Origin: a virus
Taxonomy: Duplodnaviria; Caudoviricetes
Length of the DNA stretch: 57,671 nucleotides
Direction: 5' to 3' (one strand)
Virus record (IMG/VR): IMGVR_UViG_3300037198_000035
Span: 1 to 57,671 of that record
The notes beneath the pieces were generated by a model. The model was not told the origin of the DNA, did no database searches, and saw nothing but the letters and a program-made list of their open reading frames with translations. A program made the position numbers and the translations under genes. Of the stretch, positions 13,609-28,471 are shown piece by piece (the first letter of the stretch is position 1; each line of letters opens with the position of its first letter).

Positions 13609-13707
13609 AATCAACGTATGAGCCAAGCCACAGCCAACCAAAAACCGTCAACCGTGAAAGCGGAGGCTGGCCACCCAATGGCTGTTGGCTTCGGCGATTT
13701 GTTGGGC
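13609..13707 (-). other. attC: attC-like recombination site
   Basis: minus strand GCCCAAC-5 nt-GCCGAAGC...GCTTGGC-6 nt-GTTGATT, with one extra base in L''. Confidence 0.75.
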
Positions 13708-14379
13708 TGGCGCGACTATGACAACCAAAACCAAAGGAATAATATGATGCAGAATTTAATCCTGTTTGCTTGGCGACATGGAATAACCGCTTGCGAGAAA
13801 AAGGCGGAGGCAATCGCTTTGGAACGAAGGGGGCCGCTGGTCAACATCGGCGGTGGCGTCACATCAAGCCGCTGGCACAACATTCCAAAATGTGATGCGA
13901 AAATTGACGGGCTTGATTTTAACACCCACCGGCTTCCTTATCCTGACAACCAATACGGGGTTGTGGTCTGTGAACAGGTCATCGAGCACCTTCACAACAC
14001 GACTTGGTTTTTGTCGGAACTGTATCGCATTTTGAAACCGTGCGGAAAGTTGTTGCTGGCGACGGAGAATCTCGGCTCATTGCCAAACATCTTTGCATTG
14101 CTGCTCGGCGTTGCCCCGTTCAGCACCCAGCCGTGCTGCGGAAAGTATCGCGGCGGATGGAAGCAGGGTACCGCAGATAATCATGGCTTGGAAAAGAACC
14201 ATCCCTGCTATTCGGGAGTCACCGGCCATGTGCGCGTGATGACCACGAAACAGTTATGCGAATTGCTGGTTGAATCCGGGTTCATTGTGCAGGCTGTCCA
14301 CGGCTTTTCCTTCCGGCACTACATTTTAATCGAAGCAACCAAAGCCGCGACCGCGCAGCCCAACAAGGTCCTATCATGA
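13618..14379 (+). CDS. class I SAM-dependent methyltransferase (cassette-borne)
   Basis: VNIGGG, LPYPDNQYGVVVCEQVIEHL, ELYRILKPCG. Confidence 0.85.
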   Translation: MSQATANQKPSTVKAEAGHPMAVGFGDLLGWRDYDNQNQRNNMMQNLILFAWRHGITACEKKAEAIALERRGPLVNIGGGVTSSRWHNIPKCDAKIDGLDFNTHRLPYPDNQYGVVVCEQVIEHLHNTTWFLSELYRILKPCGKLLLATENLGSLPNIFALLLGVAPFSTQPCCGKYRGGWKQGTADNHGLEKNHPCYSGVTGHVRVMTTKQLCELLVESGFIVQAVHGFSFRHYILIEATKAATAQPNKVLS

Positions 14380-18883: not shown

Positions 18884-19083
18884 ACCTGTTTGAACTTTTT
18901 AAGGAACTCCACCCTGCTCCACCGCTCTTGCACGCCGTCCTCGGCAACTACGGTTACGGTCTGCCCGTCGTCCTCAATCACAACCACGCGACCGAGTAAC
19001 TCGCCAGAATCCCACATGACGGCCAGATTGCCCTTGTTGCGGGCTTGGTCGCGGGCGAGAAGCATGGCGGCGAGGGGGGTCAT
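18880..19083 (-). CDS. hypothetical protein
   Basis: 67 aa, ATGA-coupled on both sides. Confidence 0.55.
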   Translation of the reverse strand: MTPLAAMLLARDQARNKGNLAVMWDSGELLGRVVVIEDDGQTVTVVAEDGVQERWSRVEFLKKFKQV

Positions 19084-19529
19084 GGTAAAACAAGCTGCTG
19101 TTTCCAGACGGATTTTTCACGCCACACCAAATAGAAATCCACTTCCGGCCAGAGCGTGGCGGCGACTTTAATGGTGAGGATACCCCGTGCGACGTTTTTT
19201 GCCTGCTTCGGCCCTTTCGTTTCCCAACAAACAAGCCCGCCCTCCATCCACGCCATCAGGTCCGGTTTATACCACGCTCCATTGGCCAGCCGGAAGCGGA
19301 TTGCCTGTGCGCGGAATTTAATGTCGGGATGTAATGCCTCTTGATGACGACGCCAATCAGCTTCCAGCTTGTTCGGCGGCTTCTCCCCCTGGCGTATCCT
19401 CTTGTCCTGACCAGCAACCGGCGCGGGAGTGCTGGCGAGCGGGCGGGACGAAACCTTTACCCACTCGCCAGCGGAGTTTTGGGCAAACCCTTTCGCCCGC
19501 ATGGTTGAATTGAAGTCGGCGGTCAGCAC
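19080..19529 (-). CDS. PD-(D/E)xK nuclease (DUF1064-like)
   Basis: NKLEA...YKPDL...ETKG...KVAA. Confidence 0.75.
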   Translation of the reverse strand: MLTADFNSTMRAKGFAQNSAGEWVKVSSRPLASTPAPVAGQDKRIRQGEKPPNKLEADWRRHQEALHPDIKFRAQAIRFRLANGAWYKPDLMAWMEGGLVCWETKGPKQAKNVARGILTIKVAATLWPEVDFYLVWREKSVWKQQLVLP

Positions 19530-20243
19530 TTACTCGTCCCTTTCCTTGTTCTTCGCCAGCACGTCGGCAATACCGTTTTGGAATCCCTTGGCACCGTCCG
19601 CGCCGAGATTCGCGTTGAGCCAGTCATTAAACCGCTTGCAGCCGCGCTTGACGGCATCGAACCGCTCCTTGCTGGCGGGTTGTTCGCTGTCCAGACGCTC
19701 GCCCAGGATGCGCGTGCCGATTTTGACGCGGAGCGCGGCATACCACTTTTTGCCGAACCGTCCGACAATGAGCGTGCCGTTGTCATCGTTGGCCGGTGTG
19801 AACAGTGGGATTTCCTCGCGCAGTTCAAACTTGGCTTCGGCCTCGATCAACTCGGCTTGGAAGTCGGCGGGAGTCATCACTTCCGACAGGCAGCAATTCA
19901 GGGCAAGCACTTCCTTGTCAGTTGGAATTTCGCCTTTCCAAATGTCGGCGATGAACTTCTCCAAAAAATAATACTTCTTGGAATCATTTGGGCAGAAAAC
20001 CACGACGCACTTTTCCGGTCGCATTTCAAACCCGGCATTGAGTGTCGCGGACAGGGTTTCCATGCGGCTTTCCGCTTCGGTGGTCTTGGCTTTGTAGGTT
20101 GCTTTCACGCTGTCAAATTCCGCCTCAACGGATTTGAGCGAGTCGTAAGACCGGCGAAAATCTCCGTTGAGTTGCAAGACTTCTTCGGGCGTGAACGTGT
20201 GTTTAATGGACTTGGTTTCGATTTTTGGTTTGATGGGTGTCAT
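19530..20243 (-). CDS. hypothetical protein with N-terminal coiled coil
   Basis: 237-aa ORF in the leftward operon. Confidence 0.7.
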   Translation of the reverse strand: MTPIKPKIETKSIKHTFTPEEVLQLNGDFRRSYDSLKSVEAEFDSVKATYKAKTTEAESRMETLSATLNAGFEMRPEKCVVVFCPNDSKKYYFLEKFIADIWKGEIPTDKEVLALNCCLSEVMTPADFQAELIEAEAKFELREEIPLFTPANDDNGTLIVGRFGKKWYAALRVKIGTRILGERLDSEQPASKERFDAVKRGCKRFNDWLNANLGADGAKGFQNGIADVLAKNKERDE

Positions 20244-20273
20244 GGCGTCTTTCGTGGTTTATGGTTGTTGTTT

Positions 20274-20609
20274 TTATCTCCCGCCGGCTGCCGCCCCTTG
20301 CGGAGCGACAGCGTTCTTCTGTGTCTGTGAGACGCTCAAAGCAGTCTCGTTTTGATTTAGAACAAAGAACGCGCTGGGCTGCGATAACGGCAGCCGGCGG
20401 GGGATGGGGGAAGGTTTTAGTATGGCATCAAGCGGACTTATAGACAAGTAAGATTCGATGCGTTTCTCGGTGGATAGAGATTTAGGCAGGCGCTGGGAGT
20501 GTTCGCAAAACTGGCGGACATAGAGGCAATAACTATCCTCGGTAGAAAGCGAGAAGTGCTTTAGCCTTATGAACTCGCGTACTTTTTGAACTGCCTGATC
20601 CGTTGTCAT
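20274..20609 (-). pseudogene. intI: internally deleted integron-integrase-like gene
   Basis: IntI-like N-terminal domain (VREFIRLKHFSLSTEDSYCLYVRQF...IESYLS) joined directly to the IntI C-terminal SPLD; catalytic RHRY domain absent. Confidence 0.8.
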
Positions 20610-20610
20610 A

Positions 20611-20645
20611 GATAAGTTACAAATGTTGCTTAATCATTGTTCAGC
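20611..20645 (+). other. attI: attI-like site
   Basis: immediately upstream of the intI start; ends in core GTT (20639-20641), whose downstream bases complement the first cassette's R'' flank. Confidence 0.65.
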
Positions 20646-20934
20646 GGCTTACCGTAGAGAGGTATGCTTTTGTTTCTGCCGCGAATCGTTCTTTACCGGC
20701 TGCTGGATTTGCGACCAGTCCTTTATCAATGTCGCTACACAGTGCAAAACCGGCGTCGTATCCCTTTACGAAGGCGAGTTCTATTTGTTTGCTGTCTGTC
20801 ACATATACGGTGTTTGTCTTGTATTGCGTCACAGTTGTTTCGGTGGCTGATTCTTGTTTCGAGCAGCCGCTGAACAATTCCATGCAGGCGACAGCTAGTG
20901 TTCCTGCCAGTGCGATTGATTTCAGTCTTTTCAT
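20641..20934 (-). CDS. cassette 1: putative lipoprotein
   Basis: MKRLKSIALAGTLAVACMELFSGC signal with lipobox-like Cys. Confidence 0.65.
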   Translation of the reverse strand: MKRLKSIALAGTLAVACMELFSGCSKQESATETTVTQYKTNTVYVTDSKQIELAFVKGYDAGFALCSDIDKGLVANPAAGKERFAAETKAYLSTVSR

Positions 20935-20994
20935 ATTTCGGTTTCAGTTGTGAGTCTCGGCATTACCCGCCGCGCCTGATGTCGGTCGTTCGGC
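20869..20994 (+). other. attC: attC-like site 1
   Basis: GCTGAAC-AATTC-CATGCAGG...CCTGATG-TCGGTC-GTTCGGC. Confidence 0.85.
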
Positions 20995-21251
20995 TTTTTC
21001 ATTTGTGGTCGCACCGGAAGTGATTCCTGATATTTGCGTGCCCTTTCATTTCCTGATTTGCAGTCAATTTTATGCCCCGGCCACACCGCAGCACACTCTT
21101 TGCACTTCCCGTTTTTATGGCGGTTTTCATCCGTTGCCCAAGCCGAACAAGGCGTTGCAGATAATTCGCTTTTCCGCTTTCGCCTCATGGCGTCTTGACA
21201 CAAGATGCAGTCCTCGTCGTAGAGGATATGACTTTTACAATGGTCGCTCAT
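20931..21251 (-). CDS. cassette 2: Cys/His-rich hypothetical protein
   Basis: 106 aa with CILC and CKEC...H..C; starts in attC2 and ends in attC1. Confidence 0.6.
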   Translation of the reverse strand: MSDHCKSHILYDEDCILCQDAMRRKRKSELSATPCSAWATDENRHKNGKCKECAAVWPGHKIDCKSGNERARKYQESLPVRPQMKKPNDRHQARRVMPRLTTETEI

Positions 21252-21272
21252 ATCTGAACTTTCTCGTTAGGT
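21142..21272 (+). other. attC: attC-like site 2
   Basis: GCCGAAC-AAGGC-GTTGCAGA...TCTGAAC-TTTCTC-GTTAGGT. Confidence 0.85.
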
Positions 21273-21273
21273 G

Positions 21274-21522
21274 CTAATTGATTTCTCGGCATTCAATGCT
21301 CGGTTTTTCACATTTTTTGCCTGCGAATGGGCAGTCTATCCGCTCCATCTTGGTTAGGAACTTTCCCACGTCTTTCTCGCTTGGATGGCGCAGTTCTGTT
21401 GTGAAGTTGCCGAGCTTCGTTCCACATTCGGCGCATCGGTATTCCGTTCCCTCTAGCGCGTCATTTATTTCTTGGATGACTTTCATATTCGTGAGTTCGC
21501 ACCTAACAACGCGCTGCTGCAC
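21274..21522 (-). CDS. cassette 3: small zinc-finger-like protein
   Basis: CAECG...HP...CP; start may instead be MKVIQ at 21486. Confidence 0.55.
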   Translation of the reverse strand: MQQRVVRCELTNMKVIQEINDALEGTEYRCAECGTKLGNFTTELRHPSEKDVGKFLTKMERIDCPFAGKKCEKPSIECREIN

Positions 21523-21627
21523 AACGAGTGGTGTCCCTTCCAGTTGGCGGCATCGCGTTAATTTTACGGTTTGGTTGCATTGGTTACTCCCTGCCCACCA
21601 CTCGTGGCAGAGCTTGATTCGTTAGCC
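21501..21627 (+). other. attC: attC-like site 3
   Basis: ACCTAAC-AACGC-GCTGCTGCACAACGAGTGGTG...CACCACTCGTGGCAGAGC-TTGATTC-GTTAGCC. Confidence 0.88.
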
Positions 21628-21848
21628 GTCTCTGCGAGTAAGATGCGGGCTTTTGATGCCTCGCGCCCCAAATCACTTACTGCGACTTCTCGTGTTCCGA
21701 CTAGCGCTTGGGCGTCGTAGCGATGAGCACACACGTAGTCAGCCCTGTTCGTGAGGTTTTGGAGTTGTTCACGCAGACGGCTAACAACGCGCTTCACCGC
21801 GACGTCGGATAGCCCCTTCAGTTTGGTTGTTTTTTTGGCAGTACTCAT
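21564..21848 (-). CDS. cassette 4: hypothetical protein
   Basis: 94 aa; starts in attC4 and ends in attC3. Confidence 0.6.
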   Translation of the reverse strand: MSTAKKTTKLKGLSDVAVKRVVSRLREQLQNLTNRADYVCAHRYDAQALVGTREVAVSDLGREASKARILLAETANESSSATSGGQGVTNATKP

Positions 21849-21905
21849 ATTCCAGTTTTCCTTTCTCCACCCGCCACCGGCGCGGGTGAGCTTGATTCGT
21901 TCGGC
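21779..21905 (+). other. attC: attC-like site 4
   Basis: GGCTAAC-AACGC-GCTTCACC...GGTGAGC-TTGATTC-GTTCGGC. Confidence 0.85.
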
Positions 21906-21965
21906 TTCATGAACACGATCCAGTGCGTCTTAGCCGTTTTGCCGCACCGTTGTCCTACCAGCTTC
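21899..21965 (-). pseudogene. truncated fifth cassette: C-terminal remnant of a phage SAM-dependent methyltransferase
   Basis: minus strand reads LVGQRCGKTAKTHWIVFMKPN, resembling the G.RSGK..KTHW..FMK terminus; no upstream body or attC. Confidence 0.5.
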
Positions 21966-22194
21966 GCTGTTGAACGAATAGCTCGGTATGCTAGCGAATT
22001 GTATCTAGTGCTTTGCGGATGGTCGCAAAGGAAGGGATATCGCCGGAATGCGGTTTTATCTTCAGGCGCTTACAAACGACGTCTTTAGTTAGGGATTCCC
22101 GACTAGACTTTGGCTGCATCGCTACGTGGGTTTTGCTTGATTTTGGTGTGGGCATGCAATGTTCTCCTTTTAGAATAGTCGATGTTGCTCATTT

Positions 22195-22656
22195 TCAAAA
22201 AGGCACGTCATCGGATTCGCCTTCGCTTGGCAATGGGGCGGGCTTCGTCGCTGGAATTGTCACCGGCGCAGGCGGCAAGTAATCGTCCACTTCATTTTTA
22301 TCGCCGTATTTCGGATCGTGGGTAATTTTCAACCGCACAAATCCAGTTCGGCCCGCCCAAGAATTTGAAGCCGGGTCAACCACGCCAGATTCGTATTCCT
22401 TTGCCTTTCTCGTCGTCTCACAGAAATGCTTCAACTTCCACTCACTGAACCAGTCCGCGAAATAATCATAAACGTGACGATCAAAGTCCGGGCCATGCAC
22501 ATTCAATTTCAGCGCACACATTTCCTTACCGGCGTTCTTTGCCGACTTGCTGGTTTTGATATCGCTCTCCAAAACTGTGAACGGATAGTCACCGTCCGGC
22601 AGATTTGAAAAACGCGATATTTCGGATTCGTCTTTTGGTGTAAATTTTAGTGCCAT
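22195..22656 (-). CDS. ssb: single-stranded DNA-binding protein (DUF669-like)
   Basis: LPDGDYPFTV..., acidic DDVPF tail, adjacent to an AAA_24 gene. Confidence 0.75.
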   Translation of the reverse strand: MALKFTPKDESEISRFSNLPDGDYPFTVLESDIKTSKSAKNAGKEMCALKLNVHGPDFDRHVYDYFADWFSEWKLKHFCETTRKAKEYESGVVDPASNSWAGRTGFVRLKITHDPKYGDKNEVDDYLPPAPVTIPATKPAPLPSEGESDDVPF

Positions 22657-22665
22657 AATTTTGTT

Positions 22666-23565
22666 TTATTGAAGTTTTTTCTTAAGCCAGATAATTGTCG
22701 CCGCCGCCTGTTCAGTCGAAAGCTCCTTCCAGGATTCAACCCCGGCCCTCGTCCAAACTTTTTCGATTTCCTGTTCCGTGGTTTTGACTACCGAAAGCAA
22801 TTTTTCGATTTCCTTGATCTGCTCCGGTGTTGCAAACGTGATTTGATGCGTGGCGGATTCGATGTAATCCTTGCCGTAACGCTTCGCAAATTCGTCGTAT
22901 TCGAGCGGGAACTGCTCAAGGTCGGGGAAGCCGAGCAACCGCGATTTCTTTACGATGGCAATTCTCGCCGGGCCGCGCTTGACAGCTTGGAGCGTCAGGT
23001 GAAGCTCAAAAATGAGTTTGTCCCAAACGTCGGGTATGCGACCAATTTCCGTGCGCTGGCCGCTTTTGGCGTCCAAACCCCATTCAGCAGTGTCGTGCGC
23101 GACAAACCAGATATTCATATCCAGTTTCATCGCCCAGTTGACCAGCCGCCGCATTCCGGCAATGGCCGGCTTCTTAGACGCGCCAAAGGCGTCTTTCTCG
23201 CCCAGGCGTTCCGCCTCGTTCGCAATGGCGGTCTGGTAAAGCTTCGTGATGCTGTCCACGATGAGCGTTTTGTAAGGATGCTTTTCGGCGGCGAGCGCCT
23301 GCATCTGCTCGATCAAGAAATTGAAATTAAGTGCGCCGTCTTTCGGGCCAATGTAGGCGCCCCCACTTCGCTTGAGCCGGTCTTGGTAATGTTGCAAATC
23401 CGCCCCACCCTCTGTGTCAATGTAATACGGCGCTGGAAATGTCAGAGTGAACCATGTCTTTCCGACGCCGGACGCACCGAAAATCATTCCTTTGGTTTTA
23501 CCTGGAAGAACATCTTCCGGTGATTTTGCTTTTAATTTTGTGACTGTTGTGTTTTGTGGTGGCAT
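22666..23565 (-). CDS. AAA_24 / Sak4-like recombination ATPase
   Basis: Walker A GASGVGKT, IDTEGG, TLIVDSIT, FVAH. Confidence 0.85.
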   Translation of the reverse strand: MPPQNTTVTKLKAKSPEDVLPGKTKGMIFGASGVGKTWFTLTFPAPYYIDTEGGADLQHYQDRLKRSGGAYIGPKDGALNFNFLIEQMQALAAEKHPYKTLIVDSITKLYQTAIANEAERLGEKDAFGASKKPAIAGMRRLVNWAMKLDMNIWFVAHDTAEWGLDAKSGQRTEIGRIPDVWDKLIFELHLTLQAVKRGPARIAIVKKSRLLGFPDLEQFPLEYDEFAKRYGKDYIESATHQITFATPEQIKEIEKLLSVVKTTEQEIEKVWTRAGVESWKELSTEQAAATIIWLKKKLQ

Positions 23566-24352: not shown

Positions 24353-25180
24353 ATGCCGCTCTACCAAATTAAAGACTGGGACGCCTTTTTTGAGAACGAC
24401 CGCAGCCGCAACCGTATCCAGTGCTCGTTTGTGTGCGTTCCAAACAAGCAGCATGGTATGGGCTTTTGCCGTATCATGGCCGAGGTGGACGGGGCGGCGA
24501 TCTACGGCATTTGGCATTGCATTGTGGGCGCCTGTTCCCAGCAGCGCAAACGCAACGGCTGGCTCACACCAGACGGTGACAAGGCGGTGAGTGGATGGGG
24601 AGTCGAGGACCTGGCTTTGAAGTTCCGCCGGCCTGAATCCGAAATCGCCCGCGCATTGGAAGTGCTTTGTTCTGAAAAGGTTGGGTGGATTATTGACCAC
24701 GAAAACACCGCAAGTCACCGCCAAGTCACCGCCAAGTCACCGCCTACTCACGTAGAAGGAAGGAAGGAAGGAATAGAAGGAAAGAAGGAAGTGAATGGTC
24801 GCTTCACTCCCCCCGCGCTCGAAACGGTGAAGCTTCAAGCCGCCAAAATCGGACTCAGCGACCTCGAAGCGGAGAAGTTTTTCAACCACTACACCGCTAA
24901 CGGTTGGAAGGTTGGGAAAAACCCAATGCGGTCATGGACTCACGCGCTTTCAAACTGGAAGCTCAACGCTCAAAATTATGGAAACGGAAAAATCAACAGC
25001 ACGAACAGCCGCCCAAATCCTCGAAACGTCGGAATCATTCGCGGGCCTACGGACTACGCCACCGCCAAGCCGCGCCGCCAAGTCGAACTCGAAGCCGAAC
25101 GCGCTCGCCTGGCAAGCCAAGTGGCTGCCGATGAAAATAACCCACCCACAACTCAATCAGGCGCGGGCGTCACTGTTTAA
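24353..25180 (+). CDS. phage replication initiator protein
   Basis: N-terminal YQIKDWDAFFE domain, iteron-containing linker, C-terminal FTPP...EKFFNHYTANGWKVGKNPMRSW domain; upstream of a DnaC-like gene. Confidence 0.8.
   Translation: MPLYQIKDWDAFFENDRSRNRIQCSFVCVPNKQHGMGFCRIMAEVDGAAIYGIWHCIVGACSQQRKRNGWLTPDGDKAVSGWGVEDLALKFRRPESEIARALEVLCSEKVGWIIDHENTASHRQVTAKSPPTHVEGRKEGIEGKKEVNGRFTPPALETVKLQAAKIGLSDLEAEKFFNHYTANGWKVGKNPMRSWTHALSNWKLNAQNYGNGKINSTNSRPNPRNVGIIRGPTDYATAKPRRQVELEAERARLASQVAADENNPPTTQSGAGVTV
24711..24790 (+). repeat. iterons and purine tract (putative replication origin)
   Basis: three tandem CAAGTCACCGC (24711-24743) followed by (GAAG)n. Confidence 0.75.
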
Positions 25181-25733
25181 TTTCTGCGCAGCTTATTCAA
25201 AACAGCCAAGCTGCGGCAGGACCGTCATTCTCTACGGCGAGAACGGGAGCGGAAAAACCCGCCTGATAAAACAAGTCTGCCGTTGGGCGTCACTCACCGC
25301 GCAATTCATGCCGATGGTGAACCGGCCCGACCTTGGAGATCAAACCGGGCTGGCTTACTCGCTTTTTTATCACTGGCCATCCGTGGTGGATGAGTTCCAA
25401 AAACGGCAGGACATCGGAGCGGTTGACGAGTTGATGGATTGCAGTCTGGCTGTGGTTGATGACATTGGAGCAGAGCACGACCCAAGCGGATTTGGACGCG
25501 AGCAGCTTTACCTTCTGCTGTCTCGCCGGGAATATAAATGGAACCTGTTCACGACAAACTTTGCGCCCGCCGAATGGGACAATAAATTTGAGCGTCGGAT
25601 TGCCTCTCGACTGTTTCGCAACGCGGAGCACATTGACCTTTCGATGGTGCCTGATTTCTCGACGGTCAATTTAAAACCGCTCATTCAGTCGCCAGAGTTG
25701 GCGAAGAAGTTCCGGGAGGCGGCAAAAGTTTAA
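24978..25733 (+). CDS. DnaC/IstB-like AAA+ helicase loader
   Basis: GENGSGKT, VVDDIGAE, FTTN, RIASRL; start uncertain (24978 or 25131). Confidence 0.85.
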   Translation: METEKSTARTAAQILETSESFAGLRTTPPPSRAAKSNSKPNALAWQAKWLPMKITHPQLNQARASLFNFCAAYSKQPSCGRTVILYGENGSGKTRLIKQVCRWASLTAQFMPMVNRPDLGDQTGLAYSLFYHWPSVVDEFQKRQDIGAVDELMDCSLAVVDDIGAEHDPSGFGREQLYLLLSRREYKWNLFTTNFAPAEWDNKFERRIASRLFRNAEHIDLSMVPDFSTVNLKPLIQSPELAKKFREAAKV

Positions 25734-25850
25734 CGAAAAAGCTCAGACGCGCTCGCGGTGAGCTTGGCAAAAAGAGAAAGGTAAATATGACAAAACGACA
25801 ATCGAAAACTGGAAGGCGTACCCCGCGTCGTCTGAAGCGCGTTGTTAGCC
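25728..25850 (-). other. attC: attC-like site
   Basis: minus strand GGCTAAC-AACGC-GCTTCAGACGACGCG...CGCGTCTGAGC-TTTTTC-GTTAAAC. Confidence 0.82.
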
Positions 25851-27216: not shown

Positions 27217-28017
27217 TTAGCTGTTGTGGTCTTGAGCCTCTTGTTTGGTGATGAAAAAGTGGATGCCGTTTGAGCATTCTAATAGCGGGTTAGGGTCGTA
27301 TTTGTCCGGCTTGACGGTTTCGCCCACTTTGTAAACATGCCCGTTGTGCAAACCTTTCCCTTCACCCCCAAGTACAATGGCGAATTCGGCTCGGCACTTG
27401 CGACCAATTAACCCGCCAACTCGTTTTGCTTTAGCCGGGATTTGCAGTTTGCATAGCACGCCGTTTTGCAACTTTTTCCAGCCGATTAAATCACCTTCCG
27501 GCAGGATGGTTCTTTGATTCAACAATTTTTTCAGGTCTGCGCCTGACAGGTTTGCGCCTGACAGGTATGCGCCTGACAGGTCTGCGCCTGACAGGTATGC
27601 GCCTGACAGGTATGCGCCTGACAGGTCTGCGCTTGACAGGTTTGCGCGTGACAGGTTTGCGCGTGACAGGTCTGCGCTTGACAGGTATGCGCCTGACAGG
27701 TTTGCGCTTGACAGGTATGCGCCTGACAGGTTTGCGCCTGACAGGTTTGCGCGTGACAGGTTTGCGCCTGACAGGTTTGCGCCTGACAGGTATGCGCCTG
27801 ACAGGTCTGCGCCTGACAGGTTTGCGCGTGACAGGTTTGCGCCTGACAGGTCTGCGCCTGACAGGTCTGCGCCTGACAGGTTGGCACCGCGCAGGTCGGC
27901 ATCGCGCAGGTTGGCATGGATGGCAAGCGCGGCAATTATAGCATCGCCGATGCTTTCCGCGTCGGTTTCAAAAATAACTGTTTCTCTATTCCAGCGGGAT
28001 ACAATTTTTATTTTCAT
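27217..28017 (-). CDS. pentapeptide-repeat protein with C-terminal DUF5758-like domain
   Basis: about 25 A(D/N/Y)LS(G/R/S) repeats; C-terminal GWKK...KCRAEFA...ECSNGIHFFITKQEA. Confidence 0.9.
   Translation of the reverse strand: MKIKIVSRWNRETVIFETDAESIGDAIIAALAIHANLRDADLRGANLSGADLSGADLSGANLSRANLSGADLSGAYLSGANLSGANLSRANLSGANLSGAYLSSANLSGAYLSSADLSRANLSRANLSSADLSGAYLSGAYLSGADLSGAYLSGANLSGADLKKLLNQRTILPEGDLIGWKKLQNGVLCKLQIPAKAKRVGGLIGRKCRAEFAIVLGGEGKGLHNGHVYKVGETVKPDKYDPNPLLECSNGIHFFITKQEAQDHNS
27532..27915. repeat. 15-bp coding tandem repeat
   Basis: (CAGGTHTGCGCBTGA)n encoding the pentapeptides. Confidence 0.95.
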
Positions 28018-28057
28018 AATTTTATTTGAGTTGCCGCCAGTTAAGGCGGCGATTGGG

Positions 28058-28471
28058 TTAGTTCTGCATCTTCCTTTCCTCGTCAACCAGATCGTGCAAC
28101 TGCAAATCTTCAAGATCGGCAACGAACATAATGCCAAATTGCTTTGTCTTGATGAAACAGCCGTGCCGGTGCGTTGAGTGGTCGGGCAGGCAGAACAGGC
28201 CCCAAAGCCCGCTTGAGGACGTGTAAGCGGTTTGCGTGTAGCCGAGACGCTTGGCGGCGCGTTCGCAAAACTCAATTTCCTTTTCGCTCATTTCGACTTG
28301 GTTAATATCCGGCGCTCCCCCGGTCGGAATTGTGGCGCGTTTTATGGCGGAGCAAACTAGCCCGGCATATAACCCGCCGACTGTTCCGTCCTGCTTGTCG
28401 GCCCGCTCTTTGTAGCGTAGAAAATTGGCCGCGTCTTCACTGTCTGCAAACTGTATTTTCACTGTTTTCAT
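28058..28471 (-). CDS. hypothetical early protein
   Basis: 137-aa ORF with A-rich upstream region. Confidence 0.6.
   Translation of the reverse strand: MKTVKIQFADSEDAANFLRYKERADKQDGTVGGLYAGLVCSAIKRATIPTGGAPDINQVEMSEKEIEFCERAAKRLGYTQTAYTSSSGLWGLFCLPDHSTHRHGCFIKTKQFGIMFVADLEDLQLHDLVDEERKMQN

Follow-up and report, generated by a model that had tools for sequence, protein, structure and literature searches.

Integron cassettes are usually treated as closed units, each consisting of a complete gene and a non-coding recombination site, attC, which follows the consensus RYYYAAC/GTTRRRY. In the sedentary chromosomal integrons of Vibrio, near-identical attC sites (VCRs) are found on unrelated cassette contents. 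The PeSL cassettes of T4-type phages are small accessory genes in plastic regions, with repeated structured elements thought to mediate shuffling; PeSLs are not attC sites and are not known to encode protein parts. Integron material is nonetheless on record from phages: CALINs and integron fragments in phage genomes have already been published (Qi et al., 2023; PMC9892861), and phage attC sites were recombined by IntI1 (PMC9892861).

The window analysed here, a single stretch of 57,671 nucleotides, is a complete phage genome (viral and 100% complete according to the source classification), and its host is probably Verrucomicrobial. The phage originates from peat. Known families were nearly absent among the large ORFs searched against PHROGs and Pfam (ten for each), these searches recognized few structural genes in the record, and a distant blastn search of 20200-22200 found no match among INPHARED phages. 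An integron remnant occupies 20442-21905, in which four cassettes follow an attI-like junction and the N-terminal part of intI. Directly next to this array, at 22195-23565, are a gene of the Sak4-type AAA_24 kind and one that is DUF669 SSB-like. With six attC units in a viral record that lacks a functional integrase, the window fits the description of a phage CALIN, for which two attC sites are enough; a complete integron has a full-length integrase, and none was found in the window phage or in five other attC-bearing viral records (0/6).

We located attC sites with R2, a covariance model whose training set consisted solely of 97 sites from Verrucomicrobial genomes. R2 recovered all six units of the window on the strands listed below, the four array sites with the same ends, and its best match outside the family in the 57.7 kb scored 11.7 bits (E 0.59). 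An ad hoc AAC/GTT scanner was also tried and was discarded, as it missed the four known units and ran near the noise of shuffles; it did flag 25732-25846. The features are as follows.

13609..13707, minus strand: solitary attC, 99 nt (R2 59.3 bits; model R1 30.3 bits, the unit being outside the R1 training set)
20442..20591, minus strand: intI remnant, N-terminal SAM-like domain only, 50 residues (Pfam, TIGR02249, tblastn)
20610..20645, plus strand: putative attI-like junction, from the intI start to cassette 1, GTT at 20639-20641 (position and repeat)
20640..20988, plus strand: cassette 1, textbook boundaries TT...G, 14/14-nt flanking repeat, attC1 at its 3' end
20934 to 20641, minus strand: ORF1, 97-aa predicted lipoprotein, contains ...ACMELFSGC...
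20869-20994, plus strand: attC1, 126 nt (R2 42.0 bits)
20989..21266, plus strand: cassette 2, repeat 20988-20996 / 21140-21148 (9/9 nt), attC2 at its 3' end
21251 to 20931, minus strand: ORF2, 106 aa, contains ...ELSATPCSAW..., tail PNDRHQARR...
21142-21272, plus strand: attC2, 131 nt (R2 30.6 bits, E 5.9e-6)
21267..21621, plus strand: cassette 3, repeat 21266-21277 / 21496-21507 (11/12 nt)
21274..21486, minus strand: ORF3, 70 aa, start and stop both in the cassette body (phrog_2834)
21501-21627, plus strand: attC3, 127 nt, no gene start within (R2 60.9 bits)
21622..21899, plus strand: cassette 4, repeat 21621-21631 / 21775-21785 (11/11 nt)
21848 to 21564, minus strand: ORF4, 94 aa, contains ...AVKRVVSRL..., tail ANESSSATSG...
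21779-21905, plus strand: attC4, 127 nt (R2 47.9 bits)
25728..25850, minus strand: solitary attC, antisense to the local genes (R2 44.7 bits)

The intI remnant matches Pfam PF13495 (6.2e-7, residues 8-56) and only positions 2-51 of the 315 in TIGR02249 (18.3 bits, against a cut-off of 265), and is 33-40% identical to the intI N-termini of three Verrucomicrobial loci (tblastn); its frame continues to 20274 without similarity. Judging by position and repeat, 20610-20645 appears to be an attI-like site. Its 14-nt repeat pairs 20636-20649 with the complementary 20865-20878, and the geometry of the junction agrees with that of a complete bacterial integron in locus L080.

An earlier sequence-only reading of this DNA, made without database searches, had observed that the attC sites double as coding sequence, and our analysis confirms this. 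The start codons at 20934, 21251 and 21848 do lie inside attC1, attC2 and attC4, with all coordinates and peptides as that reading gave them, and the ORFs leave these sites via the L'' and R'' boxes, as the peptides ACMELFSG, LSATPCSA and AVKRVVSR in the translations attest. On its bottom strand, attC1 carries the tail and stop of ORF2, the ATGA overlap, the ATG of ORF1 and a predicted lipoprotein signal peptide as far as ...ELFSG. Residues 1-23 of ORF1 come from attC1, its body-specific part begins with the lipobox Cys24, and the ORF stops 1 nt inside its own cassette. Residues 1-24 read as a putative lipoprotein signal peptide (an MKRLK n-region, a hydrophobic run, then LFSG-C), for which codon 1 would be needed. 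In ORF2, residues 1 to about 37 are encoded by the bottom strand of attC2, and in ORF4 the ATG and about 22 codons come from the bottom strand of attC4, which also holds a purine-rich run resembling a ribosome site.

The 3' ends of two of these genes are also attC-encoded. Neither ORF2 nor ORF4 has an in-frame stop before the crossover, and, just as had been described for cassettes 2 and 4, both cross G|TT and stop in the neighbour's attC, each 58 nt past the crossover: ORF2 in attC1, which provides its last 18 residues and stop, and ORF4 in attC3, whose bottom strand gives the tail ESSSATSGGQGVTNATKP and a stop. ORF4 is composed of an N-terminus from attC4, a body from R20 to N76 and a tail from attC3. 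At 20931-20934 the plus strand reads TCAT, the reverse complement of an ATGA in which the ORF2 stop overlaps the ORF1 start; the earlier report of this overlap holds, and it recurs in the single other DNA copy of an attC1-type unit that we found (locus L145). ORF3, which starts in its cassette body and was not among the starts named in the sequence-only reading, matches phrog_2834 (E 5.4e-4) with residues 1-58 on profile positions 1-58, starts at ATG 21486 and stops 7 nt inside its own cassette.

Because attC sites hold gene starts, first residues and sometimes last residues, exchange at these sites would change the ends of proteins. The accompanying claim, that reordering the cassettes would change C-terminal tails and translational coupling, is supported, the comparison of protein ends drawing in part on P0002 and P0004-P0007, which are known only as proteins from short metagenomic contigs. 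Natural chimeras have breakpoints at R boxes. ORF4 and its homologue P0002 are identical at 52/57 positions in the body (R20-N76), at 2/19 in the N-terminus and at 3/18 in the tail, so that tails are not conserved regardless of the neighbouring cassette. The P0002 tail diverges from that of ORF4 exactly after the AAC-encoded Asn, which is the switch that had been predicted, seen here in cassette 4, the one of the two boundary-crossing cassettes with a usable homologue; this P0002 tail is similar to what the bottom strand of a long bacterial attC encodes (12/19 identical, E 0.24). Since both ends differ in P0002, reassortment between bodies and attC interiors extends to either side of the body, a pattern that is not predicted for the textbook cassette of a body with its own attC.

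Conversely, the attC-encoded ends are found on different bodies. The predicted attC1-type signal peptide is common to six unrelated mature proteins, including P0004-P0007 and an ORF of L145, and is conserved to the Cys in all six. The attC3-type 18-residue tail occurs on four unrelated proteins, among whose bodies there was no cross-match at E<=10. As DNA, attC3 recurs at 95-96% identity in another five viral contigs, with flanks that differ on both sides, additional attC3 contexts are present in two RNA-library assemblies, and a unit with ends like those of attC2 occurs in another phage (G002, 34916-35046). In viral contigs, matches to ORF4 were confined to its attC3-encoded tail and no relatives of ORF1 were found; in metagenome contigs, none of 590 ORF4 candidates was confirmed.

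The explanation we favour, to which as a whole we assign a probability of about 70%, is that the phage acquired the part of a chromosomal integron nearest to its integrase gene (intI itself cut short, then the attI junction and four cassettes), that its cassettes belong to an inverted-coding class with the gene on the attC bottom strand, that attC interiors are portable adaptors, and that exchange remakes protein ends. The unpaired middle of the enlarged attC (about 80 nt) would bear a ribosome site, an ATG and the first 17-38 codons. Translation would run out of the attC through L'' and R'' and on into the body of the cassette, and these boxes would therefore be read as ...ELFSG..., ...LSATPCS... 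and ...KRVVS.... Where a body has no stop, it would be read over G|TT into the neighbouring attC, gaining 18 residues and a stop, and the attC1-type stop that overlaps the next ATG would make a termination-reinitiation arrangement. Because attC carries starts, leaders and stops, its interiors could be portable adaptors that supply a start, an export signal or a stop; the bodies, flanked by inverted repeats, would be the cargo, and exchange at either end would give the same body a new end. We infer that the ORFs are translated as drawn, that the sites are active at the present day, and that host IntI is the agent of exchange, acting at R' of the bottom strand and, less often, at R'' of the top strand. 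Top-strand recombination proceeds at about one-thousandth of the bottom-strand rate (PMC13108822).

A more far-reaching version, which we put forward only tentatively and think rather doubtful, is that in phages of Verrucomicrobial hosts, and in a minority of host cassettes, attC hairpins serve as exon-like junctions at which host integrase, working at either R box, builds chimeric proteins. Each enlarged attC interior would then bring the stop of the upstream gene together with a ribosome site, a coupled ATG and either an N-terminal leader or a lipoprotein export signal, and the cargo bodies would lack both start and stop and be flanked by inverted repeats. If true, this would amount to a natural system that shuffles leaders and tails by site-specific recombination.

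The chimeras could also have arisen by another route, which we consider unlikely but by a smaller distance than any other competing account. The units would be attC-derived but no longer integrase substrates in phages; they would be intergenic start and stop adaptors whose conserved 12-14-nt ends provide short homologies, and homologous exchange by the phage's recombination machinery would make the chimeras. Folding is in line with this, as are the identical ends on units with different interiors, the exchange on both sides of the ORF4 body, the absence of integrase from all six viral records examined, and the Sak4-type AAA_24 and DUF669 SSB-like genes beside the array. As single strands, attC1, attC2 and attC4 do not fold better than shuffled sequences (z -0.3 to -0.5; -0.65 to -1.2 in a second run), and may be poor or dead integrase substrates; attC3 reaches z -1.5 and -2.3 in the two runs. 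Of the hairpin, only the basal stems are retained. The bacterial 99-nt family sites have a mean z of -3.3, with 98/105 below -2. Homology, however, would have no need of the circular-cassette signature that every cassette retains: in 4/4, the cassette start is complementary to its own R'' over 9-14 nt, a mark of hairpin recombination at G|TT, although the signature is symmetric and by itself does not give orientation. The upkeep of the R- and L-box geometry and of the bulged base through compensatory changes also counts against this account, as does the position of the host site family beside full integrases.

That architecture is as follows. The G of G|TT lies at 20639, 20988, 21266, 21621 and 21899, and inverted repeats across GTT/AAC flank every cassette (14/14, 9/9, 11/12 and 11/11 nt). 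In an alignment of 10 units including the four window sites, AAC and GTT are invariant (10/10), the fit to the attC consensus is approximate only, with C at position 4 in two R' boxes, and the layout joins a 5-bp R box to an L box that has a single bulged base, by unequal unpaired spacers of 5 and 6-7 nt. The extra unpaired base is on the L'' side, and 10 of the 16 pairs show compensatory changes (RNAalifold consensus of the 10 units).

It is highly improbable that the overlaps are annotation artefacts, with shorter real genes and with the attC stretches as untranslated leaders and trailers. Such an account can point to the source gene call P0003 (80 aa), which begins ORF1 at M18, and to ORF2 having been left uncalled; Shine-Dalgarno-like runs are weak ahead of ORF1 and ORF2; and a scan of 20200-22700 gave 1 sigma-70-like promoter site (2.5 in shuffles) and 7 terminator sites (4.2 in shuffles), no signal above background. 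Yet M18 is itself inside attC1, four independently called metagenomic proteins begin at ORF1 codon 1, and the predicted signal peptide encoded by attC1 is complete to the lipobox Cys in all six proteins that have it. The sequence-only reading had allowed that the true starts might lie within the cassette bodies, but this does not hold for ORF1, ORF2 or ORF4. The first in-frame ATG, GTG or TTG in the ORF2 body is codon 56, past the invariant CxEC of a conserved zinc-knuckle-like domain (CxEC...PGHKIDCKxGNERARKYQ, about residues 39-88), and that in the ORF4 body is codon 39, within the stretch conserved with P0002; both ORFs, moreover, run to the crossover without a stop.

The ORF2 domain was found in 10 proteins at E<=0.001 (phmmer), with 12 invariant columns across 9 aligned sequences. 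A word-index search of a 5.8-billion-protein index returned no ORF2-like protein, ORF2 itself included. In two other phages (L152 and L153), homologues of the domain start and stop on their own codons with no attC closer than 1.2 kb, which counts against the favoured explanation. The region is covered by RNA-library contigs, which are strandless and may include DNA carry-over, and contigs from four RNA-library runs contained no cassette-skipping joints, coverage gaps being uninformative.

The four units are attC sites of a host integron family. An exact 21-mer of this family occurs in at least 120 loci, with Verrucomicrobiota (MAGs) making up 59 of the 80 matches listed, and model R1 found 120 units in 10 of these loci. 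Exact-string searches of species-representative genome contigs gave 0 matches each for the attC3/attC4-end pattern and an attC1 23-mer. That the repeats are instead a phage-specific intergenic repeat or terminator family resembling attC by chance is scarcely credible: an Rfam scan of 19500-23000 at E<=1 matched no family and most large ORFs of the record lack a known one, but the bacterial-only R2 picks exactly these units, an intI fragment is adjacent in the canonical position, and Verrucomicrobial genomes have the family in arrays, at densities reaching 13 units per 8 kb, next to full intI.

Phage and bacterial members of the family tend to differ in coding strand. In the bacterial arrays, 94/110 cassettes have their longest ORF on the top strand of attC, and in the control integron L080, which contains family units, intI (348 aa, 442 bits) is divergent from the array and the first cassette ORF is sense. 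All four window ORFs, by contrast, lie on the attC bottom strand, and the textbook order of a sense ORF followed by attC is not found. We considered whether the gene strand might be the attC top strand and rejected this, as it conflicts with the asymmetry of spacers and bulge, with the bacterial arrays and with the control integron. The longer ORF is antisense in 15/23 phage versus 15/110 bacterial cassettes (Fisher p 1.2e-6), counts that are non-independent because arrays contain related copies. Antisense ORFs of at least 50 aa with their ATG in attC accompany 11/15 long and 8/17 short units in phages, and 7/15 long and 5/105 short units in bacteria. True domains occur in antisense ORFs, namely Methyltransf_11, R2K ATP-grasp and the ORF2 domain. 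The solitary sites of the window are similarly involved in coding: a 253-aa methyltransferase ORF (Methyltransf_11, 38.7 bits, cut-off 21.2) starts within 13609-13707, while at 25728-25850 the R' box holds the stop of a 273-aa AAA-type gene and the loop holds the start of an 85-aa ORF.

In the window, then, recombination sites double as coding sequence, and some genes need a neighbour to be complete. Under the favoured explanation, recombination would alter proteins (export signal, N-terminus, C-terminal tail and translational coupling) besides gene order and expression. This would bear on the diversification of phage accessory genes, on the origin of cassettes with uniform attC sites, and on the annotation of cassette ORFs, as gene callers miss or mis-start such ORFs.

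Among known systems, the Vibrio VCRs are alike in that near-identical attC sites accompany unrelated contents, and unlike in that the shared attC interiors are here coding modules common to otherwise unrelated phages. PeSLs differ in that the window units are built like attC sites and are members of an integron family of the host. The phage CALINs (PMC9892861) are likewise attC arrays without a working integrase, and methyltransferase cassettes are common in both; their cassettes, however, are described as typically oriented, the main text of that report describes no attC-encoded starts, signal peptides or tails, and the window additionally retains an intI stub and an attI-like junction. The toxin-antitoxin cassettes of chromosomal integrons (PMC13108822) are also independent of the Pc promoter, but they have their own promoter, and that account places no start codon or coding sequence in attC. 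Finally, ORF-11 and ORF-18 of attI1 and the short attC ORFs (PMC8876359) share with the window a frame across the crossover, a stop given by the next cassette, and termination-reinitiation coupling. As described there, these are tiny sense-strand leader peptides that aid translation, whereas in the window antisense cassette proteins would take their N-termini, an export signal and C-terminal tails from attC.

The complete 57,671-base viral record carries an integron remnant (20442-21905) embedded among phage genes, within an interval where every plausible gene lies on the minus strand (19080-23565).

13609-13707, antisense to flanking core phage genes: solitary attC
19080-23565, minus strand: interval whose genes include a phage-type DNA methyltransferase
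20442-20591, minus strand: N-terminal SAM-like domain of an integron-type integrase (Pfam PF13495, 6.2e-7)
20869-20994, plus strand: attC1, 126 nt, right of the integrase stub
21142-21272, plus strand: attC2, 131 nt, right of the stub
21501-21627, plus strand: attC3, 127 nt, right of the stub
21779-21905, plus strand: attC4, 127 nt, right of the stub
22195-23565, minus strand: AAA_24 (Sak4-like) gene and DUF669/SSB-like gene, directly beside the cassette array
25728-25850, antisense to flanking core phage genes: solitary attC

Of the 315-position NCBIfam integron-integrase model, the stub matches positions 2-51 alone. Between it and the next phage gene is a 141-nt hairpin (20270-20410; z -5.9 against shuffles, 18-bp basal stem) containing a motif like the R''/spacer of this attC family (20365-20376); the hairpin may represent a decayed site or a terminator bounding the captured fragment on the left. 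Elsewhere in the window, the 15-nt tandem periodicity of the repeat scan (27442-27981) is explained by a 352-aa pentapeptide-repeat protein (27217-28275, minus strand; Pfam 1.5e-64) whose C-terminal domain is DUF5758, and an 11-nt unit repeated three times in tandem (24711-24751), possibly iteron-like, lies within a 275-aa ORF (24353-25180) just upstream of an AAA-type gene.

All four units have AAC near the start and GTT near the end, five unpaired bases after AAC, six or seven before GTT, and inner repeats that pair over 3 bp, have a single bulged base in the 5' arm and pair again over 4-10 bp. RNAalifold, applied to ten aligned units from the window and five other viral contigs, recovers exactly the attC layout, with compensatory changes in 10 of 16 pairs. 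The first bases of every cassette form the complement of that cassette's R'' for 9-14 nt (14/14, 9/9, 11/12 and 11/11 for cassettes 1-4), the mark of a cassette able to circularise. A 21-nt string of related phage units occurs at no fewer than 120 loci in species-representative genomes, 59 of 80 among the matches listed carrying the label Verrucomicrobiota, with copy number reaching 13 per 8 kb at some loci; in ten of these bacterial loci a first covariance model found 120 units. A second model (R2), trained exclusively on 97 bacterial units that had themselves been collected with a model seeded from phage units, recovers attC1-attC4 with identical ends and strand (42.0, 30.6, 60.9 and 47.9 bits) as well as the two solitary units; the next-best match in the window scores 11.7 bits (E 0.59).

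The sequence-only reading had placed ORF starts inside attC sites, and the start candidates of ORF1, ORF2 and ORF4, the minus-strand cassette ORFs concerned, all fall in their own attC, as judged from comparison of homologues. ORF1 (20934->20641) begins MKRLKSIALAGTLAVACMELFSG-C, a predicted leader of basic n-region, hydrophobic core and lipobox; attC1 supplies the codons up to ...FSG from its loop, L'' and R''. This leader is common to four metagenomic proteins and one ORF of another viral contig with unrelated mature parts: the alignment has 15 invariant columns up to Cys24 and 0 beyond. The source gene caller's start, M18, is also within attC1. The ORF2 body is a small conserved domain, CxEC...PGHKIDCKxGNERARKYQ, with 12 invariant columns in nine sequences (eight of ten phmmer matches were taken; proteins of 3325 and 601 aa were omitted). 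Since its earliest in-frame start codon inside the body, codon 56, lies past CxEC, the predicted start is limited to codons 1, 17 and 22, all in attC2. Likewise, ORF4 shares 52 of 57 residues (R20-N76) with P0002, a 97-aa metagenomic homologue, and its earliest in-body start is codon 39, so that codon 1 or 18, both in attC4, must serve. The start of ORF3, at 21486, is within the body.

Enlarged attC sites may act as initiation regions. Counting ATGs within a unit that open an antisense ORF of 50 aa or more, we found them in 11 of 15 long (at least 120 nt) and 8 of 17 short phage units, and in 7 of 15 long and 5 of 105 short bacterial units; sense-strand counts were 1, 3, 0 and 1, respectively. 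Several bacterial long units have a purine-rich run a few bases ahead of the antisense ATG, and from these runs and counts we conclude that a start-bearing attC class exists as a minority in the hosts' integrons. In three Verrucomicrobial MAG arrays (L054, L057, L061), a minority of cassettes has 126-129-nt attC sites whose bottom strand reads purine-rich run, ATG and a frame open into the body, the same design as the phage units.

Phage and bacterial arrays differ in their coding-strand bias. The longest ORF is on the model top strand in 94 of 110 bacterial cassettes, as in L080, a complete bacterial integron (348-aa intI, 442 bits against a cut-off of 265, divergent from the array) with its first cassette gene on the sense strand, upstream of that cassette's attC. 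In the window the L080 geometry recurs: the minus strand carries the intI stub, and the attC sites to the right of it have their top strands on the plus strand. The cassette genes of the window, however, unlike the first of L080, lie on the attC bottom strand. In 15 of 23 cassettes from phage arrays the antisense ORF exceeds the sense ORF in length, and in 15 of 23 it starts within its own attC (Fisher p 1.2e-6 for the antisense bias against bacterial cassettes, although cassettes of one array are not independent). Antisense ORFs encode Methyltransf_11 (13618-14379, window) and, in another phage, R2K ATP-grasp domains. The solitary site at 13609-13707 contains the start of a 253-aa methyltransferase; at 25728-25850, an AAA-type (helicase-loader-like) gene has its stop codon in the R' box, and an 85-aa ORF starts in the unit. 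G004, a complete 71.6-kb phage record bounded by terminal repeats, has 17 attC units within 8 kb, all oriented alike (L016 16219 to L017 4276; record positions 56219-64276), and no integron integrase; among its opposite-strand genes are one for an ATP-grasp protein and one that weakly resembles Dam.

At their other ends, ORF2 (21251->20931) and ORF4 (21848->21564) meet no stop ahead of the G|TT crossover and each terminates 58 nt into the neighbour's attC. The ORF2 stop overlaps the ORF1 ATG (ATGA), and this overlap recurs in L145, a viral contig with the sole other attC1-type DNA copy found. The decisive comparison for tail switching is that of ORF4 with P0002: identity is 2/19 over the attC4-encoded N-terminus, 52/57 over the body and 3/18 beyond Asn76, whose codon comes from the AAC complement of the R' GTT. 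Thus the predicted switch of tails at the AAC-encoded Asn holds in this pair, but the proposal that shuffling swaps C-termini described only half of the exchange, as the N-terminus switches too; both protein ends appear exchangeable. The P0002 tail matches a bottom-strand reading of a long bacterial-array attC weakly (12/19 identical, E 0.24). An attC3-type unit, 95-96% identical in five viral contigs sharing almost nothing else with the window, would add the tail (N)ESSSATSGGQGVTNATKP to four proteins without detectable similarity to one another, and in two RNA-library assemblies it has other flanks, divergence beginning right at the unit ends. This unit (window 21501-21627; L002, L003/L005, L006, L008) contains no gene start; possible reasons for its strong conservation are that it holds a small RNA or a regulatory site, or that it spread very recently. 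The observation of coding attC sites is confirmed, and natural chimeras support its interpretation, with translation and recombination both predicted.

How modules would be exchanged is a separate matter, the protein-level breakpoints fitting two routes. In one, an integrase would recombine R' as bottom strand and, on rare occasions, R'' as top strand; PMC13108822 puts the rate of top-strand use roughly a thousandfold below that of the bottom strand. Homologous exchange, with the conserved 12-14-nt attC ends as the shared sequence, also fits, and a Sak4-type recombinase gene adjoins the array; this gene and its DUF669/SSB-like neighbour may matter if the phage's own recombination system is used. 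Current integrase activity at these sites is favoured by the intact R/L-box geometry and cassette-flank complementarity, and by the host attC family being plainly active in bacterial arrays; against it, the window and five other attC-bearing viral records have no full intI, and the three sites that bear starts, attC1, attC2 and attC4, show no more folding stability than shuffled sequence.

Phage attC clusters and integron fragments have been published, with phage sites shown to be IntI1 substrates (PMC9892861). A review (PMC8876359) describes ORF-11 of attI1, whose frame spans the crossover so that the next cassette supplies the stop, and short ORFs within attC that aid translation. A search of the main texts of openly available papers found none that describes attC-encoded signal peptides, N-termini or tails. 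Because the N-terminus also switches and one attC interior serves many bodies, the reassorting units are of two kinds, a body flanked by an inverted repeat and an attC interior. This differs from textbook reassortment, in which a cassette is a body with its own attC; here body and attC interior reassort separately.
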